Source: Terriglobia bacterium (lineage in GTDB: Bacteria > Acidobacteriota > Terriglobia > 20CM-2-55-15). From it: DNA of 64,000 nt. Both the position numbers and the translations under genes were made by a program. Within the stretch, counting starts at the first letter, position 1, and each line of letters opens with the position of its first letter. The notes beneath the pieces were generated by a model. That model saw nothing but the letters and a program-made list of their open reading frames with translations. It was not told the DNA's origin and ran no database searches. Positions 10,681 through 51,264 of this stretch are shown piece by piece. The stretch spans positions 800,001-864,000 of the forward strand of contig CBDAOY010000005.1 of NCBI GenBank assembly GCA_965198225.1, in the 5' to 3' direction.

Positions 10681-10697
10681 CTTAGCGTTGGATTTTG
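10681..10697 (-). repeat. Inner 17 bp of a Tn3-family 38-bp terminal IR (5' exon of intron 1)
   Basis: Joined with 18879-18899 gives rc GGGGTCGAGTCCGGCAGGGGGCAAAATCCAACGCTAAG, exactly 38 bp with GGGG...CGCTAAG consensus. Confidence 0.8.
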
Positions 10698-11188
10698 GTG
10701 CGCCGTGAAAGGCGCCATTCCCCAGCGGGTGCGAACCCCGCCCGGCAACTGTCGCTCCAGCCGGTAGCAGTCGGAGCGGACGATGGAGGTAACGACATCG
10801 GCTGAAGCACTCCGATGACAAAGGGCCGCCCTGGGCGGTTCAGCGACCACGCGGGCCGCAACGATGTGAACGCTGCGCAGGCCTCGTAACGAAGCGATGC
10901 GGAAGCCGATCCGCCCGGAATACGGGGAAGGCTGCCAGCGGTCGGGAAGCGAGCGACGCGAGCACCGACCGGTTCCGCCGGGGTAGTAGCGGCGGCACGT
11001 GTGGAAGGGGGGGATGGACGCAACACGGGAAGCCCTGCCGGTGGCGTGGCATGCGCCAACCGACAGCCCGCGAGGGTCAGGTTGGGCCGACAGGGTGGCG
11101 GAGAGGTCCGCAGTACCAGGGAAGCCGGGTAATGCCGGTGGAGGGAAGGGACCTCAGTTCGAGAGCAGCGCATGACGGAGGAAGGGAC

Positions 11189-12415
11189 ATGAGGACTGGC
11201 GAGAGCCTAACAGCCTCGGAGAGAGTTCAGCGACTCCAGACGGCGCTACATGCGAAAGCGAAGGAAGCTCTGGGCTTCCGGTTCTACTCTCTGAGCGACA
11301 AGGTGTGGCGCGACGACGTGCTCGCAGTCGCCTGGCAGGCCGTGCGCCGCAACGGCGGCGCGGCCGGGGTGGACGGCGAGACGGTCGGAGACATCGAGGC
11401 GCTTGGGGTAGACCGGTGGCTGGGAGCACTGGCGCGGGACCTGAAGGAAGGGACCTATCGGCCGCATGCGGTTCGGCAGGTTCTCATCCGAATGCCGAAG
11501 AAGCAACGAGGGAAGTTCCGGCCGTTGGGCATTCCGTGTCTCCGGGATCGGGTGGTGCAGACGGCGGCGATGCTGGTGTTATCGCCGATCTTCGAAGCCG
11601 ACCTGCAACCGGAGCAGTATGCGTACCGGCCGGGCCGAGACGCGCATGATCGCAGGACGGGCCACCGGCGATCTGGTGTTACGCGCGTGCCATCGGCTGC
11701 TGAGGACGGGCCACCGGGAGGTGGTGGACGCCGCCGCACGAACCGGGCGCGTCACGAGCGGAAGGGGACCCCGCAAGGGTCTCCGATCTCGCCGCTGTTC
11801 AGCAACATCTACATGCGGCGCTTCATTCTGGGCTGGAAGGTGCTGGGCTACGCCCGGCACTTCAAGGCGGAAATCGTCAACTACGCGGATGACTTCGCGG
11901 TTCTCTGTCGCGCGCCGGCAGCGGTAATGCTAGCGGCGGTCGAAGCCCTGATGAAACGTCTGAAGTTGGCGATGAACGTTGAGAAGACCCGCTGCTGCCG
12001 GGTGCCGGAGGAATCGATGACGTTCCTCGGCTACCGGATTGGTTGCAACTACCGGCCGGACACGGGTACCGCCTACATAGGCACACGTCCGAGCCGGGAA
12101 AGCGTCCAGAGCATCTGCCGTCGTGTGAGCGAGTTGACCACGCCGCGTCACGCGCTCCTGCCGCCGGAGGTCGTAGTGGGACGCCTCAACCGGTTGCTGA
12201 CCGGTTGGGCGAACTACTTCACCCTGGGACAGGTCAGCCCGGCCTACGAGGCGATTGACCGGCACGCAACTCGGCGGCTGCGCCAGTGGCTCTGCCGTAA
12301 GCACAAGGTGCGGACCGGGAAACACGTGCGCTTCCCGGTCGAGCGGCTCTGGTCCGATTACGGGCTCACGCATCTTGCGCCGCGTACGGCGAGCTTTCCG
12401 TGGGCGAAGGCATGA
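11189..12415 (+). pseudogene. Intron 1 reverse transcriptase/maturase with internal deletion
   Basis: AAGVDG, RPLGIP..DRVVQ, GTPQGSPISPL, NYADD, domain X; the RT3 segment between AYRPGR and GTPQG is largely missing. Confidence 0.85.
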
Positions 12416-12867
12416 TCTCGTCCGAGAGCCGGATGCGGGAAATCTGCATGTCCGGTTCGATGAGCGTTGCGCCTTGCAAGCGCATGAGATCCAGTCGCCT
12501 GAGATGGCGGCCGTGGCAGAGCCTAGCCGGCAGCCACGTACCGAGTCTTGCGTGGTGGTCGGTGACGGACACTGCGAAGCGTAGACAGGGAGGGAGTAGG
12601 CCGGAACACCAGTGAACGGAAAGATAGCCCCGAAATCGAACGTGGTTGAAGTAGCCGACCCTGTCGCTCTAGGGGGAAGGCGGAATCGCAGGGCACGCAA
12701 TGGCAAGTGCCCTGGGGTGCTTCCGGGGTTCGTACCGCCGGCATGCAACCAAGGATTTCATGGGAACAAGGGAGATCCGTCAGGTTCAAGCGGAGCTTGT
12801 AGGGTTGGACAAGCCAACAACGCGAGGAAGACCCGAAGGCCTGTCGGAAGTCAGACTGGCTGATAGT

Positions 12868-13771
12868 GCGTGCCTGGCAGCACGCGTTTCCGGCGGGTTA
12901 AAGTCCCGCTCGGCCCGAGGCCACGGGTCGATATCCAACAAGTGGGGGTAATGCCTCACTGGCCGAAGTGTAGACAGGTAGTGCAGATGCCTAAACGGGC
13001 ACGAAGGCGAAAGCCGGATACGGCCAAGGCAAAGCTGGAGCCAGCTACGGAAACTTTGGAGGGCAGGGCGCCCACCGCGAGGTGGGGTCTGAAGGGCATG
13101 AGGAGAACCACCGGGTCGTAATCGACGGGAGCCATCCCGAGGATGAACCGGTCGGCCAAAGATGGGGAATGGTCGAGCCCGCACTATTGGGGCGAAGGCG
13201 CATTGGTTCCACCCCATCGCACCAAGGTGTGTGCGGGCGACACGGTGGAGAAGAGACGCGAGTGACCCAGGGAGGCCTGGTATCGTCCGAGCGGAAGGTA
13301 AGGTCGAGATGATGTGGCACCCGCAGACGAAAGGGCGGGCAACCGAGAAGACAAACATCGACCTAGAGCCCTGCGCGGTAGGTGCGGATATAAGCGAGAG
13401 CGAAATTCCGGCCGACGCGGTGTCAGGAATCGGATCGGGGAATAGTACTCAGGAACGAGACGGCAAACATAAGGTCTCGGATCGTTGCTTCGAGCAGCGG
13501 CGCTGGCGGGTCCAAAAGGCCCGTTGGAGGGGGAAGTCCCCGTACTCAGTCGTGAATGTGCGAGCGATGGGAAACGCGGAGATATCGTGAACTTGGATAG
13601 TTCCCTTAGCGAAAGACCCAAACGCGGTACGAACGAAGCCGCCACCTGCCGCCACACAGCGAATTCCGAACGAGGAGCAACTGAGGAAAGCGGCTTGCGG
13701 GAAAACCGCACGAGCCGTTTGATTGAGCGGACGGTGGAAGGGCCGATCGGCCCGACCACTTTCGACTCTAC
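12868..13771 (+). ncRNA. ORF-less group II intron 3 (~904 nt)
   Basis: 5' GCGTG; EBS1 loop ACTATT 13183-13188 followed by GAAGG; DV GAAAGCGGCTTGCGGGAAAACCGCACGAGCCGTTT; 3' CTCTAC; no RT ORF. Confidence 0.85.
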
Positions 13772-14096
13772 ACTCAGGAACGAGACGGCAAACATAAGGT
13801 CTCGGATCGTTGCTTCGAGCAGCGGCGCTGGCGGGTCCAAAAGGCCCGTTGGAGGGGGAAGTCCCCGTACTCAGTCGTGAATGTGCGAGCGATGGGAAAC
13901 GCGGAGATATCGTGAACTTGGATAGTTCCCTTAGCGAAAGACCCAAACGCGGTACGAACGAAGCCGCCACCTGCCGCCACACAGCGAATTCCGAACGAGG
14001 AGCAACTGAGGAAAGCGGCTTGCGGGAAAACCGCACGAGCCGTTTGATTGAGCGGACGGTGGAAGGGCCGATCGGCCCGACCACTTTCGACTCTAC
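13447..14096 (+). repeat. Tandem direct repeat of the 325-bp DIII-DVI half of intron 3
   Basis: 13447-13771 and 13772-14096 appear identical by eye (ACTCAGGAACGAG...CGACTCTAC). Confidence 0.92.
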
Positions 14097-14198
14097 ACTC
14101 CGAGGTCGGGAGAGCCGATCACATGGGGAAGCGGCCAGCAGAAGTGGACTCGTTCTTGGGAAACATGAGCTCCATGCAACGGGAGGATACGGTCCTCT

Positions 14199-15545
14199 AT
14201 GCAACGAGAGGAACAACCAGTCATGGAAACGAAACTGGAACGAATAGCGGCGAAAGCTCGGAGTGAGCCAAAGCTCCGGTTCACGTCACTGGCGCATCAT
14301 GTCACCCGAGAGCGTGTGTGGAAGAACCTGTGTCAAGTGCCCCGCAACACGGCTCCCGGATGTGATGGTCAGAGGGTACCGGAGGCGAAGGAGGAATTCG
14401 GAGTCTGGGTGGAGCCAATGCTCCAGTCTGTTCACCAGAAGGGATATCGCGCTCCGCCGATTCGGCGGGTGTATATCCCCAAGCCCGGCAAGCAGGAGAA
14501 ACGTCCCCTGGGCGTGCCCTGTGTTCAAGATCGGGCCCTTCAGCGCAGCGTGGCCGAGGTATTGGTCGCCATCTACGAGCAGGACTTCTTGCCCTGTTCC
14601 TTTGGTGGCCGGCCTGGGCTGGGCGCCCACAATGCACTGGCAACCCTCCATGAGGTGATTTCCGGATGCAAGGTGAGTTGGGTGTTGGAGGCGGACTTGA
14701 AGAACTTTTTCGGGAGTTTAGACCATGGATGGCTACTCCGCTTTGTGGAGCATCGAGTCGGAGATCCGCGGATCATCAGTCTGATACGACGATGGTTAAA
14801 GGCGGGCGTTTTCGAAGACGGGGAATTGCATTCGAACGAAGAGGGAACCCCGCAAGGTGGGTCGATCAGCGTTCTGCTGAGCAATCTGTACCTGCATTAT
14901 GTGCTTGACCTGTGGTTTGACCGGATGGTCCGGCCACGCCTGAAGGGTGAAGCGTATCTGGTGCGGTACATCGACGACTTTGTCGTGTGTTTCCAATATC
15001 GGGACGATGCGCTTCGTTTCCAGAACGTTCTGCGCAAGCGACTGGGAAAGTTTGGACTGGTTCCGGAGCCGACCAAGACGAAGCTCGTCGAATTCGGCCG
15101 CTATGCCCAGCGCGATGTCGTCCGGCGCGGGAGAAAACGTCCAGAGACGATCTATTTTCTGGGCATGACCCTGTACTGTACGCGTAATCGCAAAGGCAAT
15201 TTTAGAGTGGGACTGCGAACAGAGAAGTCTCGACTTCGACGCAGTCTGGCTCATCTACGCGGCGTGATGAGGCGAATGCGTCACTTGCCGGTCCGGGAGC
15301 AAGTGCACAATCTGAACCGAGTCTTGCGCGGGCACTACGCCTACTATGGCATTGCCGGGAACCTCCGGGCTCTGCAGCACGTCGCTCGGGCCGTGGAACG
15401 TTACTGGCGCCAAATGCTCAGCAGTCGTAGTCGTGCAGGCTTCGTCCGGTGGGAAGTATTCAACCGGATTCAGCTGCACTTTCCGTTACAGCGTCCCAAG
15501 TTGGCTCTCCGCTATCGGGAGTTCCAGTCTCTCGCTGTGCTGTAA
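14199..15545 (+). CDS. Intron 2 reverse transcriptase/maturase (no endonuclease domain)
   Basis: RPLGVP..DRALQ, LEADLKNFF, GTPQGGSIS, RYIDDF, domain X (LRGHYAYYG). Confidence 0.93.
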   Translation: MQREEQPVMETKLERIAAKARSEPKLRFTSLAHHVTRERVWKNLCQVPRNTAPGCDGQRVPEAKEEFGVWVEPMLQSVHQKGYRAPPIRRVYIPKPGKQEKRPLGVPCVQDRALQRSVAEVLVAIYEQDFLPCSFGGRPGLGAHNALATLHEVISGCKVSWVLEADLKNFFGSLDHGWLLRFVEHRVGDPRIISLIRRWLKAGVFEDGELHSNEEGTPQGGSISVLLSNLYLHYVLDLWFDRMVRPRLKGEAYLVRYIDDFVVCFQYRDDALRFQNVLRKRLGKFGLVPEPTKTKLVEFGRYAQRDVVRRGRKRPETIYFLGMTLYCTRNRKGNFRVGLRTEKSRLRRSLAHLRGVMRRMRHLPVREQVHNLNRVLRGHYAYYGIAGNLRALQHVARAVERYWRQMLSSRSRAGFVRWEVFNRIQLHFPLQRPKLALRYREFQSLAVL

Positions 15546-15631
15546 ATCCAATTCTGAAGAGCGCAGTGCGGGAAATCCGCACGCTGCGTTCTGTGGGAGC
15601 CGGAGGCGGGCAACTGCCTCCGGCCACCCGG

Positions 15632-17038
15632 GCGGATTCGGGCGCCGATTTTGAGAAGCTTCAGACGGATGGTCCCGCACTGGGCATGGGCCATCGCGGT
15701 ATCTTTGAGCCCGAGGCGTCGCAGGGCATGCATGAGCATGTACGCAGCTGAGGAGAGATAGAGCCGGAGCTGATTGGCGCGCATGGTCGCCGCGCTGGTC
15801 CGGTCCGCAAATAGGTCCAACTGCTGTTCCTTGATACGGTTCTCCATGTCGCCCCGCGCGCAGTAGAAGTCCTCATACAAAGCGCGGGCTTGGAAGCGTT
15901 CCGGCGGCAGGGAGGTCACGATGAATCGGGGATTGGCGCCCTTGTCCAGGAACTCCGCCTTGCCGACGACGCGTCGCGCGCGGGTCCAGCTGTTTAGAGT
16001 CCGGTACTGGAAATCCTTAAACACCCGCGCCGGTTTCCCGGTGGCGTTAAACTCCGCTTCCGCCTGAACCATTTCTTCAGCGATTTCTTGCTTGAGACGA
16101 CTGTTCTTGGCCAACCCGATCACATAATCGACCGGATGGGATTCACACCAGGCGAGCAGTTCATCCCTGCAAAAGCCCGAGTCGGCCCGGATGATGATCG
16201 ATACTGTGGGCCACACCTGTCGGATCTGACCGACGATGCGCTCTAACTCATCCACCGCTCCGTCGGCCCCGTCAATGTTGGAACGCCGGAGCCGGGCGCA
16301 CAGCAGATGTTCTCCCGAGAAGATGTACAACGGCAGGTAGCAGTAGTTGCCGTAGTAGCCGTGAAAGAACCGTCCTTCCTGGTTGCCATGGATCGTATCG
16401 TCGGTGGCATCCAGGTCCAGAACGATCTCAGAGGGCTCCGATTCGTGGGCCGCGATAAACGCGTCGACCATCCACCGGTCGATCTTGTCGCCATCCATGG
16501 CGATCTTCTTGTACCGCTCCTGGCCATCGACCTGCTCTGCGGTCAGTTCCAACCGGTTCAGCGTGCACTTGCCTGCCAACGCCTTTCCCCGGTCTCCGGC
16601 CTGCCGCCGGTTTTTTCCCAGTGGATCGGCCTTCTCCACCGCCACGGCCAGCATCGGATCGGTCCGTAGCTGGTCGTGGTCGTTCAGGTCCTCATAGCCC
16701 AAGCACAGTCCATAAATCCGCTGGCCCAACAACTCCTTCACGCTGTGTTCGATCAACCTCGGGTCCCGGTGATCGGTAAAACACTGCTCCAGTCCGGCGA
16801 TCAAACCCGTCCGCTTCTCGACTTCCCTCAACAGCAGAACACCCGCGTCGGAGGTGATCTTTCCGCCGTCGAATCGCGCCTTCACTTTCCGTTGAAAAAG
16901 TCCGTGAAATTCGAACGTGGCTTGCTTACACTCTGTTCTCATAAGGGCCGTCTCCGTTTGGGTTTTTAAACGTTTCTCGTCAAACGCTTTATGCCAAACA
17001 GGGCGGCCTTTTCTGGTCCTATCCGTGAAATATAGGGG
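15632..17038 (-). mobile_element. IS1380-family element, transposase 15632-16942 truncated at C-terminus
   Basis: FDGGKITSDAG, LGYEDLNDHD, IVLDLDATDD, IRADSGF, YCARGDMENRIKE; one terminus near 17038, the other replaced by intron 2 3' end. Confidence 0.9.
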
Positions 17039-18769
17039 CTAGCCGGCAGCCACGTACCGAGTCTTGCGTGGTGGTCGGTGACGGACACTGCGAAGCGTAG
17101 ACAGGGAGGGAGTAGGCCGGAACACCAGTGAACGGAAAGATAGCCCCGAAATCGAACGTGGTTGAAGTAGCCGACCCTGTCGCTCTAGGGGGAAGGCGGA
17201 CACTCCGAGGTCGGGAGAGCCGATCACATGGGGAAGCGGCCAGCAGAAGTCGACTTCGGATCTTGGGACTCCCGAGCTCAATGCATTCCGGGACACGGGT
17301 CTATGCAACGAGTCGGCTACAACGTCCAGATCGCTGAAACGACACTGAGCACGAACCTGATCGCCGAACAGCAGGTCGGAGTGAGCCAAGGTCTCCGGTT
17401 CTCGGTCACTGCTCGCATCATGTCACGGCGACAGCGGTCGTGGAAGAACCTGTGGCAAGTGCGACGCAGATCGACGGTCGCGGATGTGATGGCTCTACAA
17501 GTATCGAAGACGATTGAGGACTTCGAAGCCGCCGTGGAGCCAATGCTCCTAGTCTGTTCCAGAAGCCCGATATCGGCGCACGGCCAGATTCGGCGGGTGT
17601 ATATCCCCAAGCCCGGCAAGCAGGAGAAACGTCCCCTGGGCGTGCCCTGTGTTCAGCGATCGGGCCCTTCATCGCGCAGCGTGGCCGAGGTATTGGTCGC
17701 GCATCTACGAGCACGTACTTCTTGTCAGTTACTTTGGTGGCCGGCCTGGGCTGGGCGCCCGCAATGCAGAGGCTGCGGTCATGACGCGATTTCCGGATGT
17801 ACCAAGAACACCTATCGGCGCATGGACGCGACTTCGAAGAACTTTTTCGGAAGTTTAGACGATGGATGGCTACTCCGCTTTGTGGAGCATCGAGTCGGAG
17901 ATCCGCGGATCATCAGTCTGATACGACGATGGTTAAAGGCGGGCGTTTTCGAAGACGGGGAATTGCATTCGAACGAAGAGGGAACCCCGCAAGGTGGGTC
18001 GATCAGCGTTCTGCTGAGCAATCTGTACCTGCATTATGTGCTTGACCTGTGGTTTGACCGGATGGTCCGGCCACGCCTGAAGGGTGAAGCGTATCTGGTG
18101 CGGTACATCGACGACTTTGTCGTGTGTTTCCAATATCGGGACGATGCGCTTCGTTTCCAGAACGTTCTGCGCAAGCGACTGGGAAAGTTTGGACTGGTTC
18201 CGGAGCCGACCAAGACGAAGCTCGTCGAATTCGGCCGCTATGCCCAGCGCGATGTCGTCCGGCGCGGGAGAAAACGTCCAGAGACGATCTATTTTCTGGG
18301 CATGACCCTGTACTGTACGCGTAATCGCAAAGGCAATTTTAGAGTGGGACTGCGAACAGAGAAGTCTCGACTTCGACGCAGTCTGGCTCATCTACGCGGC
18401 GTGATGAGGCGAATGCGTCACTTGCCGGTCCGGGAGCAAGTGCACAATCTGAACCGAGTCTTGCGCGGGCACTACGCCTACTATGGCATTGCCGGGAACC
18501 TCCGGGCTCTGCAGCACGTCGCTCGGGCCGTGGAACGTTACTGGCGCCAAATGCTCAGCAGTCGTAGTCGTGCAGGCTTCGTCCGGTGGGAAGTATTCAA
18601 CCGGATTCAGCTGCACTTTCCGTTACAGCGTCCCAAGTTGGCTCTCCGCTATCGGGAGTTCCAGTCTCTCGCTGTGCTGTAAATCCAATTCTGAAGAGCG
18701 CAGTGCGGGAAATCCGCACGCTGCGTTCTGTGGGAGCCGGAGGCGGGCAACTGCCTCCGGCCACCCGGT
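17039..18769 (+). pseudogene. Second, 5'-truncated copy of intron 2 with deletion and chimeric segment
   Basis: 17039-17200 matches 12523-12685; 17860-18769 matches the 3' part of the first copy; ends ACCCGGT. Confidence 0.85.
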
Positions 18770-18878
18770 GCGACTGGAAACGAAGCCACGGCGAGGAGTG
18801 AGGCACCGGAATCGGCGAAAGCCACCGGCAACAGCTACCCCCTTTGCCTACCGCCACCGCGCCAGTCGTCGACTCTAC

Positions 18879-18899
18879 CCCCCTGCCGGACTCGACCCC
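18879..18899 (-). repeat. Outer 21 bp of the Tn3-family IR split by intron 1
   Basis: CCCCCTGCCGGACTCGACCCC immediately after the intron 3' end. Confidence 0.8.
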
Positions 18900-25973: not shown

Positions 25974-26166
25974 GTGCACCGTGAGAAGGCGCCAATCCTC
26001 AGCGGGTGCGAATCCCGCCCGGCAACTGTCGCTCCAGTCGGTAGCAATCGGAGCGGATGGTGGAGGTAACAACATCGTCTGAAGCACTCCGATGACAAAG
26101 GGCCGCCTCGGGCGGCTCAGCGACCACACAGGCCACAACGCGAGTAAACGCCGAGCAGGCCTCGTA
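25974..26166 (+). pseudogene. 5' fragment (domain I) of an intron-1-family group II intron
   Basis: GTGCACCGTGAGAAGGCGCC... closely similar to 10698-10888; cut by IS110 end. Confidence 0.85.
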
Positions 26167-49564: not shown

Positions 49565-51264
49565 AGATCGACCGGTCCAGTTACGGGGAACATTTCGGAC
49601 CCACCACGGGCGATCGGGTGCGGCTCGGGGATACCGACCTGTTCATCGAGGTCGAATCGGACCACAGCGTCTACGGTGAGGAGGTCAAGTTCGGCGGAGG
49701 CAAGGTCATCCGCGACGGCATGGGGCAATCCGCGTCAGCGTCCCGCGAAGCCGGCTCTCCCGACCTCGTGATCACCAACGCGCTCGTCATCGATCATACG
49801 GGTATCTTCAAAGCCGACATCGCCGTTCGCGACGGCAGGATCTCCGCAATCGGCAAGGCCGGGAACCCCGACATCATGGATGGCGTTACCGAAGGGATGG
49901 CGATCAGCGCATCCACGGAGATTCTCGCGGGCGAGGGACGCATCGTCACGGCCGGCGGTATCGACGCCCACATCCATTTCATATCGCCGAATCAGATTCC
50001 GGAGGCATTCTATTCCGGCGTCACGACCCTGATCGGCGGTGGCACCGGGCCCGCGACGGGGACGAACGCGACGACCTGCACGCCCGGCCCGTGGAACATC
50101 CGACGCATGTACGAGGCGTCTGAGGCATTCCCGCTGAATTTTGGCTTTCTCGGGAAGGGGAACTCTTCGCTGCCAGGAGCTCTGGAAGAACAGATCCGAG
50201 CCGGCGCTCTCGGCCTGAAGCTCCATGAAGACTGGGGAACGACGCCGGCGGCGATTGATCAATGTCTGACAGTCGCCGACCGGTTCGACGTCCAGGTCGC
50301 GATCCACACCGATACGCTCAACGAAGCCGGGTTTGTAGAGGACACGATCGCTGCGTTCAAGGGAAGAACGATCCACACCTACCACACCGAGGGCGCCGGG
50401 GGCGGCCATGCTCCCGACATCATCCGCCTCTGCGGCGAATCGAACGTCCTGCCCTCCTCGACCAATCCCACGATGCCCTTCACGCGGAACACGATGGACG
50501 AGCACCTGGACATGCTGATGGTGTGCCACCATCTGTCGGCATCCATCCCTGAAGACGTCGCGTTTGCCGACTCGCGGATTCGAGCCGAAACGATCGCGGC
50601 CGAGGACATCCTGCACGACATGGGTGCTTTCAGCATCATGGCCTCCGACTCCCAGGCCATGGGCCGGATCGGTGAAGTCATCTGCCGGACCTGGCAGACA
50701 GCCGACAAGATGAAGAAGCAGCGCGGACGTGTCGACGAAACCGGTGACAATGACAACGTCCGGGCCAAGCGCTACGTGTCGAAGTACACGATCAACCCGG
50801 CGATCGCACACGGCATTGCCGGAACGGTGGGATCGGTCGAGGTCGGGAAGATGGCGGACCTGGTTCTGTGGAAACCGGCCTTCTTCGGCGTGAAGCCGGA
50901 GGTCATCGTGAAGGGTGGGTTCATCGCGGGGGCTGCCATGGGTGATGGGAACGCGTCGATCCCCACGCCGCAGCCCTACGTCTACCGGCCGATGTTCGGC
51001 CATCATGGCCAGGCGCTCGATTCGACTTCCGTGCACTTTGTTTCGCAGGCCGGGGTGGAGACCAACGGGCTCGACGGACTGCGCCGCAGACTCGACCCCG
51101 TCCGCGGCTGCCGTACACTCGGCAAGAAAGATCTCAAGTGGAACGATGCGACACCCAATATCGAAGTCAACCCGGAGACCTACGAAGTGCGCGCCGACGG
51201 TGAGCTGCTGACCTGCGACCCGGCCGAAATACTTCCCCTGGCGCAACGTTACTTCCTTTTCTGA
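49561..51264 (+). CDS. ureC: Urease subunit alpha
   Basis: [46 protein letters not shown]. Confidence 0.98.

Follow-up and report, generated by a model that had tools for sequence, protein, structure and literature searches.

Group II introns inserted in other group II introns (twintrons), introns without an open reading frame (ORF) that are moved in trans, and one intron found inside itself are already in print, and in the published texts available the reported targets are domain IV, an intron ORF or one-off sites. Here we describe a 904-nt ORF-less group II intron, hereafter the element, at positions 12868–13771 of a 64,000-nt stretch of a Terriglobia bacterium genome (the window; positions 800001–864000 of contig CBDAOY010000005.1, here C5; genome code G000, 6.4 Mb in nine contigs). 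From comparison of its copies we consider it highly probable that the element is a mobile group II intron lacking a reverse transcriptase (RT) gene, which is targeted through its exon-binding site 1 (EBS1), lands mainly in introns and in itself, and is moved by the enzyme of ORF-bearing siblings; mobility is suggested because copies occupy many sites with matched pairing.

In the TeI3 (ORF-less)/TeI4 system of Thermosynechococcus elongatus, the target is the start of the RT ORF of related introns (Mohr, Ghanem and Lambowitz 2010, PMC2882425). As described there, and as in the element, the ORF-less derivatives share one common deletion, and twintrons arise where one family enters other introns at a conserved site, in one case an ORF-less relative. 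The target in that account is in domain IV of close relatives, whereas the element has as its target a ribozyme motif of domain III, in unrelated families and in itself. Mobilization of ORF-less introns in trans was shown by assay in T. elongatus (PMC2882425), whereas for the element we infer it. Nested arrays pruned by recombination are known from Methanosarcina acetivorans, as summarized in a review (PMC4424553). As far as that summary goes, the archaeal system resembles ours in its repeated site-specific homing into introns, its ORF-less and ORF-bearing forms, its nested arrays and the removal of copies by recombination. A 2003 study of M. acetivorans by Dai and Zimmerly reportedly, by its title, concerns homing into related intron ORFs; the site of the element, in contrast, is part of the catalytic RNA and crosses Rfam families.

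The intron cox1i1149g2 of Lycopodiaceae mitochondria, described as "invading itself" (Zumkeller, Gerke and Knoop 2020, PMC7049729), is likewise inserted in its own copy, in another intron and at several further sites. In the text of that report it reflects a single old event in its own domain IV, the inner copy being a degenerate, unspliced "zombie", whereas the element occurs as several near-identical nested copies at a defined domain III pairing site, together with recombination derivatives. The twintrons of Euglena, Porphyridium and Trichodesmium (PMC4424553, PMC4476101, PMC4649490) also place one group II intron within another, and an inner intron that disrupts a required structure is expected to be removed first by splicing; as described in the texts, the sites are in domain IV in Porphyridium (PMC4476101) and in domain I in Trichodesmium (PMC4649490), and no shared cross-family motif is described in them. 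In Clostridium tetani C.te.I1, repeated domain V/domain VI (DV/DVI) units lead, according to the review, to alternative protein isoforms (PMC4424553). The window copy of the element has two such sets and two possible 3′ splice sites as well, but its repeat appears to have arisen through self-insertion, and the host would be repaired by the distal site alone. We found no report of homing into domain III or the junction between domains II and III (J2/3) in full-text searches of the literature; figures of PMC2882425, PMC4476101 and PMC7049729 may show further sites.

The element, its copies and its ORF-bearing siblings

The element starts with GCGTG at 12868 and ends with CTCTAC at 13771. Within its host, itself a group II intron (host 2), it is preceded by GATAGT (12862–12867), and ACTCC follows from 14097, after a second copy of the 3′ half. 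These boundaries are exact, because empty sites fix the ends: (i) host-2-like introns of two related genomes (L058 and L060) are uninterrupted and read ...GATAGTACTCCGAGGT and ...GATAGTACTCTGAGGT, also written ...CTGATAGTACTCCGAGGT and ...CTGATAGTACTCTGAGGT as sites without the insert, and (ii) a second host family (D1D4-3) is represented in the same genome by seven identical empty copies against one filled copy. An alternative 5′ end two bases upstream (GTGCG, 12866) was rejected, as the flanks vary there and the empty sites fix the boundary. The main parts are listed below, with the bases for each assignment.

12868..13771, plus strand: complete ORF-less group II intron, 904 nt; 5′ half A (element bases 1–579) 12868–13446, 3′ half B (bases 580–904) 13447–13771 (empty versus filled sites, BLAST, RF00029)
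13183..13188, plus strand: EBS1 (ACUAUU) in a 9-nt hairpin loop with a 4-bp closing stem (covariation with flanks)
13688–13720, plus strand: domain V with AGC triad, first copy (RF00029 alignment, sequence)
13688..13771, plus strand: domains V and VI, with the bulged A of domain VI at 13765, 7 nt from the end (RF00029 alignment, sequence)

The Rfam model RF00029 aligns over its whole length (model positions 1–77) to 13686–13771, ending on the last intron base, with 36.9 bits and an E value of 1.8e-5 in a search of the 904 nt; the match is not listed in the whole-window scan. The AGC triad, the AC bulge and A13765 were read from the element sequence, and DV/DVI have the features expected of a group II intron. 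In domain I, RF02001 scores 24.5 bits at 13071–13178, below the curated 32, and a relative of the element in another genome (G032) reaches 32.4 bits. Four ORFs of 83–145 aa inside 12868–14244 gave no Pfam match (E ≤ 0.01). In all, the intron ends, the flanks, the EBS1 and self-site coordinates, the 325-nt repeat and the missing RT ORF were found where the initial annotation had put them. Assignment to the class C (stem-loop-targeting) introns was considered and dropped, given a six-base EBS1 that covaries and a ribozyme of about 900 nt.

BLAST of the 904 nt against the genome returned 34 pieces, which we grouped into about 18 loci. All 20 of the 5′ junctions start with GCGTG, and the flank before them ends in TAGT in 18; at the 3′ side, the full junctions end in CTCTAC followed by A in 21/21. 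Two copies, at C6 345941–343788 and C5 503866–501714, are 2154 nt long and bear an RT/maturase, about 1250 nt standing in place of a 9-nt filler that lies 24 nt before DV. Their open frame of 479 codons matches RVT_1 (2.8e-33) and GIIM (1.5e-19), and no endonuclease domain was found in this intron-encoded protein (IEP) with Pfam. An RT and maturase ORF in domain IV, the mark of a group II retroelement, is present in the siblings and missing from the window copy. Wherever ORF-less copies can be aligned over the deletion point, they have the same ORF deletion with the same 9-nt filler, and therefore the ORF-less form arose once and then multiplied. The first 795 nt of the element, including the start of domain IV, are 96–97% identical to the ORF-bearing siblings. 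Based on these alignments, we regard the element as a deletion derivative of a 2154-nt intron still intact in two copies of the same genome, and the common deletion bears out its earlier description as a non-autonomous group II intron.

Relatives at 77% identity begin with GUGUG. One of them (L026; G032:C65, about positions 778–870), in a related genome, follows another copy head to tail, its start adjoining the DV/DVI and 3′ end of that copy (...CCGACCCGAC|GTGTG). A similar sequence stands ahead of the 5′ end of the element in a contig of an RNA library (run X16), as a loose end at window position 12868. Such an arrangement could reflect tandem DNA copies or the junction of a circle or lariat.

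Recognition of the target

The loop ACTATT at 13183–13188 had been proposed as EBS1. Its identity as EBS1 is established by comparison, because loop variants covary with the flanks both within the family and in a distant relative. The 5′ flanks of the 20 junctions are GATAGT (8), AATAGT (4, all in the element itself), CATAGT (3), CGTAGT (2) and CGTAAT, AGTAGT and GATGGC (1 each). The loop reads ACTATT in 14/20 copies and ACTATG in 6/20, and the two variants track the flank base at −6: all three CATAGT sites hold ACTATG copies and all four AATAGT self sites ACTATT copies, in both cases with perfect pairing, and the GATAGT sites hold mostly ACTATT copies, which leaves one G-U pair. In a 77% relative from another family of the same class (L014), the homologous loop is CCAAAG and the flank CTTTGG|GTGTG. 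The stem that closes the loop covaries as well (CCC/GGG, CCU/AGG and UCC/GGA; two compensatory changes in three sequences). In the second relative, L026, which sits directly past the 3′ end of another intron, the loop does not fit the flank.

One RF02005 host has CATAGT in its filled copy and CATACT in three empty paralogues (C6 296559, C8 79130 and C5 569985). CATACT is a change in an otherwise well-conserved ribozyme motif and would also spoil pairing with the invader.

Further upstream, G-18, C-16, G-14 and A-13 are kept in at least 9 of the 11 distinct contexts of this genome, and also at a non-intron site, C8 158737 (site X), and at two sites of another genome (L081 and L083). The genome contains 469 ATAGTA and 1185 N-R-TAGTA-S sites, so the six pairs alone cannot explain the choice of site. 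The DNA target is recognized by pairing of the EBS1 loop (ACUAUU/ACUAUG) with six bases N-R-U-A-G-U, followed by A; the conserved bases at −13 to −18 are observed in addition to this pairing. A candidate EBS2, UCUGA at about 13095 against UCRGA at −17 to −13, was set aside, as the homologous bases of L014 do not fit its own flank, and we make no claim for it.

Position of the site in the ribozyme

The linker between domains II and III, named in the initial annotation as the insertion site, is not where the element sits: the insertion point falls in the first loop inside domain III, and the J2/3 triplet R-G-A/C is 13–15 nt upstream. J2/3 is a short linker holding the base γ and a conserved G. 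That the well-conserved (R)UAGUA belongs to domain III and not to J2/3 corrects an anatomical mistake that is easily made.

RF02005 introns were gathered from 150 genomes of the same class, and 18 were aligned around the motif. Genome G089 counts only towards the tally of these introns, and none of the claims depends on it. In these, GAAGUC-R-GA is followed by seven variable bases, the unpaired (N)AUAGUA(C), inner stems, GGAGGGAAG, seven bases complementary to the first seven, CCAAGGRGAAC and then the ORF. All seven pairs between the bases before AUAGUA and those after GGAGGGAAG show compensatory changes, in 3–11 of the 18 sequences (RNAalifold); this covarying 7-bp helix therefore closes the last domain before domain IV, which is domain III. 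The 3′ end could be located in 12 introns, and in 11 of them the last intron base is complementary to the R of UC-R-GA (7 G-C, 4 A-U); the twelfth combination is G-U. From this covariation, together with general knowledge of J2/3, we take R to be the γ of the γ–γ′ pair. The corresponding candidate in the element is G13432, which would pair with the last base, C13771. On these alignments, the insertion point is 5 nt inside the basal helix of domain III, 13–15 nt past J2/3, in the (R)UAGUA loop.

12850..12867, plus strand: target in host 2; GUCAGA with J2/3 (γ candidate A12853), helix strand CUGGCUG 12856–12862, loop AUAGU 12863–12867
13430..13447, plus strand: the element's own target; UCGGA 13430–13434 (J2/3), helix CGGGG 13436–13440, loop AAUAGU|A 13441–13447

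The helix partner in host 2 is CGGCCAG at 14132–14138, after GGGGAAG, and the order of motifs matches that of the 18 RF02005 introns of other genomes. In the element, the partner is CCCCG at 13538–13542, after GGGGGAAG, and the relatives L080 and L083 have exchanged CGGGG/CCCCG for the compensatory CAGGG/CCCTG. Two further RF02005 hosts and the outer intron of the window (outer intron 1, RF02003) show the same layout as host 2 and the element itself; two RF02001 hosts fit less cleanly, with 4–5 pairs. Among loci taken without regard to occupancy, the Rfam match is followed by TAGTA in 17 of 29 RF02005 loci, with the expected spacing in 16, and in 17 of 27 RF02001 loci, where 16 have it in the expected position after GAAGTCAGC. 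Single-sequence folds of the joined flanks of nine sites gave minimum-energy structures that depend on the window folded; they provided the first hint of the domain III helix, which was then tested by covariation, and are not used as evidence.

Host 2 and the nested introns of the window

The intron that contains the element comprises the following parts.

~12467–15631, plus strand: host 2, group II intron containing the element
12467..12867, plus strand: 5′ part of host 2, with domains I and II, J2/3 and as much of the domain III 5′ strand as precedes the insertion (RF02005)
14097..15631, plus strand: 3′ part of host 2; remaining domain III, domain IV with IEP ORF 14199–15545, DV/DVI 15557–15633

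The RF02005 domain I match at 12502–12736 (137.2 bits) belongs to host 2, as does the RF00029 match to DV/DVI at 15557–15633 (46.5 bits), and the RT/maturase ORF between them matches the Pfam domains RVT_1 and GIIM, the latter right at the cut-off. The 5′ boundary, 12466|12467, is set by an uninterrupted copy of outer intron 1 and by three different 5′ flanks. Host 2 and the element form a twintron in the usual sense: a group II intron forms the outer member, and the element has exact ends within it. The window copy of host 2 is probably dead, because its final base or two have been replaced by an insertion sequence (IS).

How the occupied host multiplied can be judged from its copies. The six host-2 copies whose 5′ part is complete all contain the element, this genome has no empty one, identity between the host parts is 100%, and a deleted copy at 17039–18769 retains the last two bases of the element. 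It is accordingly quite possible, if short of probable, that host-2 copies with the element spread as whole twintron units and not by repeated invasion of empty copies. Set against this, identical hosts contain different inner arrangements (two-, three- or four-part forms, or partial duplications; see below), and empty host-2-like introns exist in two related genomes. Interruption of domain III is also expected to cripple the host ribozyme.

Several further observations concern these introns. The 5′ end of host 2 is UUGCG, not GUGCG, in the 6/6 copies compared, and the 5′ flanks of other copies read CATGAGCG and CGGGAGCG. Host 2 is itself nested in a third, outer group II intron (window 10690–12466 and 18770–18890), with RF02003 at 10723–10866, an IEP ORF at 11051–12415 and DV at about 12426–12458; host 2 follows directly past DV, at GATGAGCG|GCGACTGG, and at C5 744141–743283 the outer intron occurs uninterrupted. 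With host 2 inside the outer intron and the element inside host 2, the window therefore has three levels of nesting. The minus strand of the IS at 15631–17042 encodes a DDE transposase of 476 aa (DDE_Tnp_1_4, E 3.7e-150), and four to five further copies of this IS occur elsewhere in the genome. It is followed by the second, damaged copy of host 2 at 17039–18769, which is without the first 56 nt and the equivalent of 12685–14094. The element's two final bases (AC) stand there ahead of ACTCCGAGG, and this copy therefore descends from an occupied host 2; its IEP ORF is 92% identical in DNA to that of the first copy, with a partial RVT_1 match. Elsewhere in the window, a further RF02003 domain I match lies at 26000–26143 (82.8 bits), and on the minus strand at 49707–50005 there is a full-length match to 5_ureB_sRNA (RF02514, 85.2 bits, E 1.3e-20), a family of antisense RNA of the urease gene; the match may merely reflect conserved ureB coding sequence.

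Host range

In 9 of the 11 distinct contexts, the insertion is at one equivalent position, either in the element itself or in group II introns belonging to four Rfam domain I–IV (D1-D4) families (RF01999, RF02001, RF02003 and RF02005), and in nine of the eleven loci a D1-D4 match lies 91–290 nt upstream of the insert. This single homologous position in four families and in the element upholds the earlier proposal that it homes to a conserved intron motif, including its own. The other two contexts are ordinary DNA, with no Rfam intron match at E ≤ 0.001 for either: site X is antisense in the end of a 234-codon membrane-protein-like ORF, and the copy at C5 3834 lies beside a methyltransferase-like ORF, its second 3′ half cut by an IS.

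We scanned 185,579 species genomes for the first 30 bases of the element and found two further metagenome-assembled genomes (MAGs), each titled Terriglobia bacterium. The nested copy in host 2 recurs in the first. The second has three ORF-bearing copies, 92–97% identical, with EBS1 ACTATG; two of the three have readable flanks and both are in non-intron DNA, and one copy lies in sense within a response-regulator-like ORF. The phrase "programmed to invade" introns, used in the initial annotation, overstates the case, given the two contexts in ordinary DNA and the two copies of this MAG in non-intron DNA.

The simplest reading is that the target is a stretch of about 20 nt that happens to equal the J2/3–domain III consensus. 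It coincides with a conserved ribozyme stretch made up of J2/3, the (R)UAGUA loop and, between them, the 5′ strand of the basal helix of domain III. With its 31 maturase matches, this genome offers such a target many times; in so intron-rich a genome the element therefore lands mainly in introns of several families and in its own domain III.

A true specialization, in which J2/3–domain III is a niche, the element an obligate "intron of introns", and features beyond the six EBS1 pairs are recognized, appears to us possible but rather doubtful. It would account for the preponderance of introns (9/11 contexts) against hundreds of matching hexamers elsewhere in the genome, for hosts drawn from four Rfam families, and for conserved bases (G-18, C-16, G-14 and A-13) that fall on the J2/3 region. 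The same distal bases, however, are found at the non-intron sites X, L081 and L083, where they define a sequence and not an intron; the two flank-readable copies of the second MAG are in ordinary DNA, and none of its three has an Rfam intron match nearby; and the 31 maturase matches mean that intron targets are simply plentiful.

The enzyme and splicing

We propose that the element moves by reverse splicing and reverse transcription with the RT/maturase of its ORF-bearing siblings. By analogy, this enzyme more likely acts on it in trans, because the IEP of host 2 is only 32% identical to the element's own IEP, at least one host appears to have no room for an ORF (about 290 nt separate the element from DV there), some sites are not in introns, and the first 795 nt of the element are 96–97% identical to the siblings. 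One ORF deletion, several well-paired sites and a cognate IEP elsewhere in the genome are what is expected of an ORF-less intron of the trans-mobilized type. An IEP without an endonuclease domain is expected to prime from replication forks, according to the review (PMC4424553), and because the sibling IEP has no such domain, the same would be expected here.

The initial annotation had assigned this role to the host maturase at 14199–15545, from which the element was thought to borrow. That protein has RVT_1 and, at the cut-off, GIIM; it is made from the same transcript, and relaxed IEPs serving several introns are described in T. elongatus (PMC2882425). The cases in the available text of that report involve closely related IEPs, against 32% identity here; the element occurs in hosts of four families, in the host with a gap of about 290 nt and in non-intron DNA; and the two cognate IEP genes are intact. 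We judge splicing and movement by the host maturase unlikely, and the assignment did not hold up.

Contigs of two metatranscriptome runs and of two other runs were aligned to 12300–14500. Metatranscriptome contigs cover the element, and the flank of the C7 copy is present in one RNA contig. A single joint is listed, from 13446 to 13772; it corresponds to the single-copy form and is indistinguishable from the tandem repeat.

Self-insertion and rearranged forms

The 325 nt at 13447–13771 are repeated without change at 13772–14096 (325/325 in BLAST pieces; 300/300 at a spacing of 325). The element's own site, AATAGT|ACTC, is at 13441–13450; the repeat begins exactly there and ends exactly at the 3′ end of the element. 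With A and B as the 5′ and 3′ halves, the relevant copies are arranged as follows.

13772..14096, plus strand: second identical 3′ half B, with the remainder of domain III, a stump of domain IV and domains V and VI
Window: A-B-B
C5 3834–4942: A-B-B
C4 150750–152235: A-A-B
C6 840163–841975: A-A-B-B
C5 64012–62160: A-A-B-B
C8 158737–160383: A-A-B-B

Another genome (L013/L031) has A-A-B-B in host 2. The inner junctions, AATAGT|GCGTG and CTCTAC|ACTCAGG, are those predicted for insertion at the own site, and the 3′ self-junction CTCTAC|ACTCAGG recurs at C5 4738, C5 62485, C6 841650 and C8 160059. At C6 839044–843514, a paralogue of the outer intron, host and element of the window has one extra A and is four-part. 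The window form would be a self-twintron that lost one A, because complete four-part forms with the same two junctions exist elsewhere, at three loci here and in one other genome; the earlier view of the repeat as a remnant of self-insertion is thereby supported. The loss may have occurred by recombination between direct repeats or by resolution of the complementary DNA on the resident A. Only the distal 3′ splice site (14096) would rebuild domain III of the host.

That the repeat has nothing to do with self-homing, being a simple tandem duplication or an assembly artefact, might be suspected from the A-B-B form, seen only here and at C5 3834–4942, and is very improbable given a repeat that runs exactly from the own AATAGT|A to the 3′ end of the element, the same junction in three complete nested copies that also carry the reciprocal AATAGT|GCGTG, and the four-part form with the same outer intron, host and element at C6 839044–843514.

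Hosts have been rearranged as well. At C5 889958 and C4 150750, an RF01999 intron provides the 5′ flank, and the 3′ flank matches host 2 at 100% identity; in another genome the same RF01999 5′ flank is combined with a different 3′ flank. The 3′ flanks of the copies at C5 503866 and C8 903484 are 93% identical, and their 5′ flanks come from different families. On the evidence of these flanks, the chimeric hosts are products of recombination.

Discussion

Several observations weigh against the proposal of a mobile, EBS1-targeted intron that lands mainly in introns and itself. The 5′ end, GCGUG in 20/20 copies, deviates from GUGYG. Deviant 5′ ends are known in active introns, TeI4h of T. elongatus being reported to start with U (PMC2882425), and the deviation lowers the certainty of activity, not of ancestry. 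The DV/DVI score of 36.9 bits is under the curated Rfam threshold of 40 bits; of the earlier statement that DV/DVI are intact, the full-model match ending on the last base stands, with this shortfall in score. The usual active-site motif of an RT is YADD, and the sibling IEP has WADD in its place. A single-sequence fold of 13425–13560 gives another pairing in place of the domain III basal helix, is not better than shuffled sequences (z −1.69) and favours neither view. The six-base pairing cannot account for a restriction to introns. Most potential targets are empty, including 14 self sites and seven of the eight copies of one host, and the copies of the second MAG occupy sites reading CGTAGT or TGTAGT, in whose vicinity Rfam gives no intron match. 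In the four runs aligned, which consist of short contigs and are uninformative on splicing, expression and the number of 3′ halves, 12867 is nowhere joined to 14097.

What sets the element apart from those published cases is a target that is part of a conserved catalytic RNA. With such a target, one element can enter introns of at least four structural families and cannot avoid being its own target, and each insertion should switch off the host ribozyme until the inner intron is removed. We offer, tentatively and as less than an even prospect, the view that this lineage took a conserved piece of the ribozyme, J2/3 and the base of domain III, as its homing site, so that introns of any family and the element itself became potential hosts; it would then be a generalist hyperparasite that disables its hosts until spliced out, with self-nested arrays pruned by recombination and chimeric hosts as products. 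The locus provides a natural system in which to ask how far six-base pairing and a few distal bases set the choice of target, and whether an intron can act as a brake on other introns. With four-, three- and two-part forms and chimeric hosts in one genome, it is also a natural system for the growth and collapse of nested arrays.

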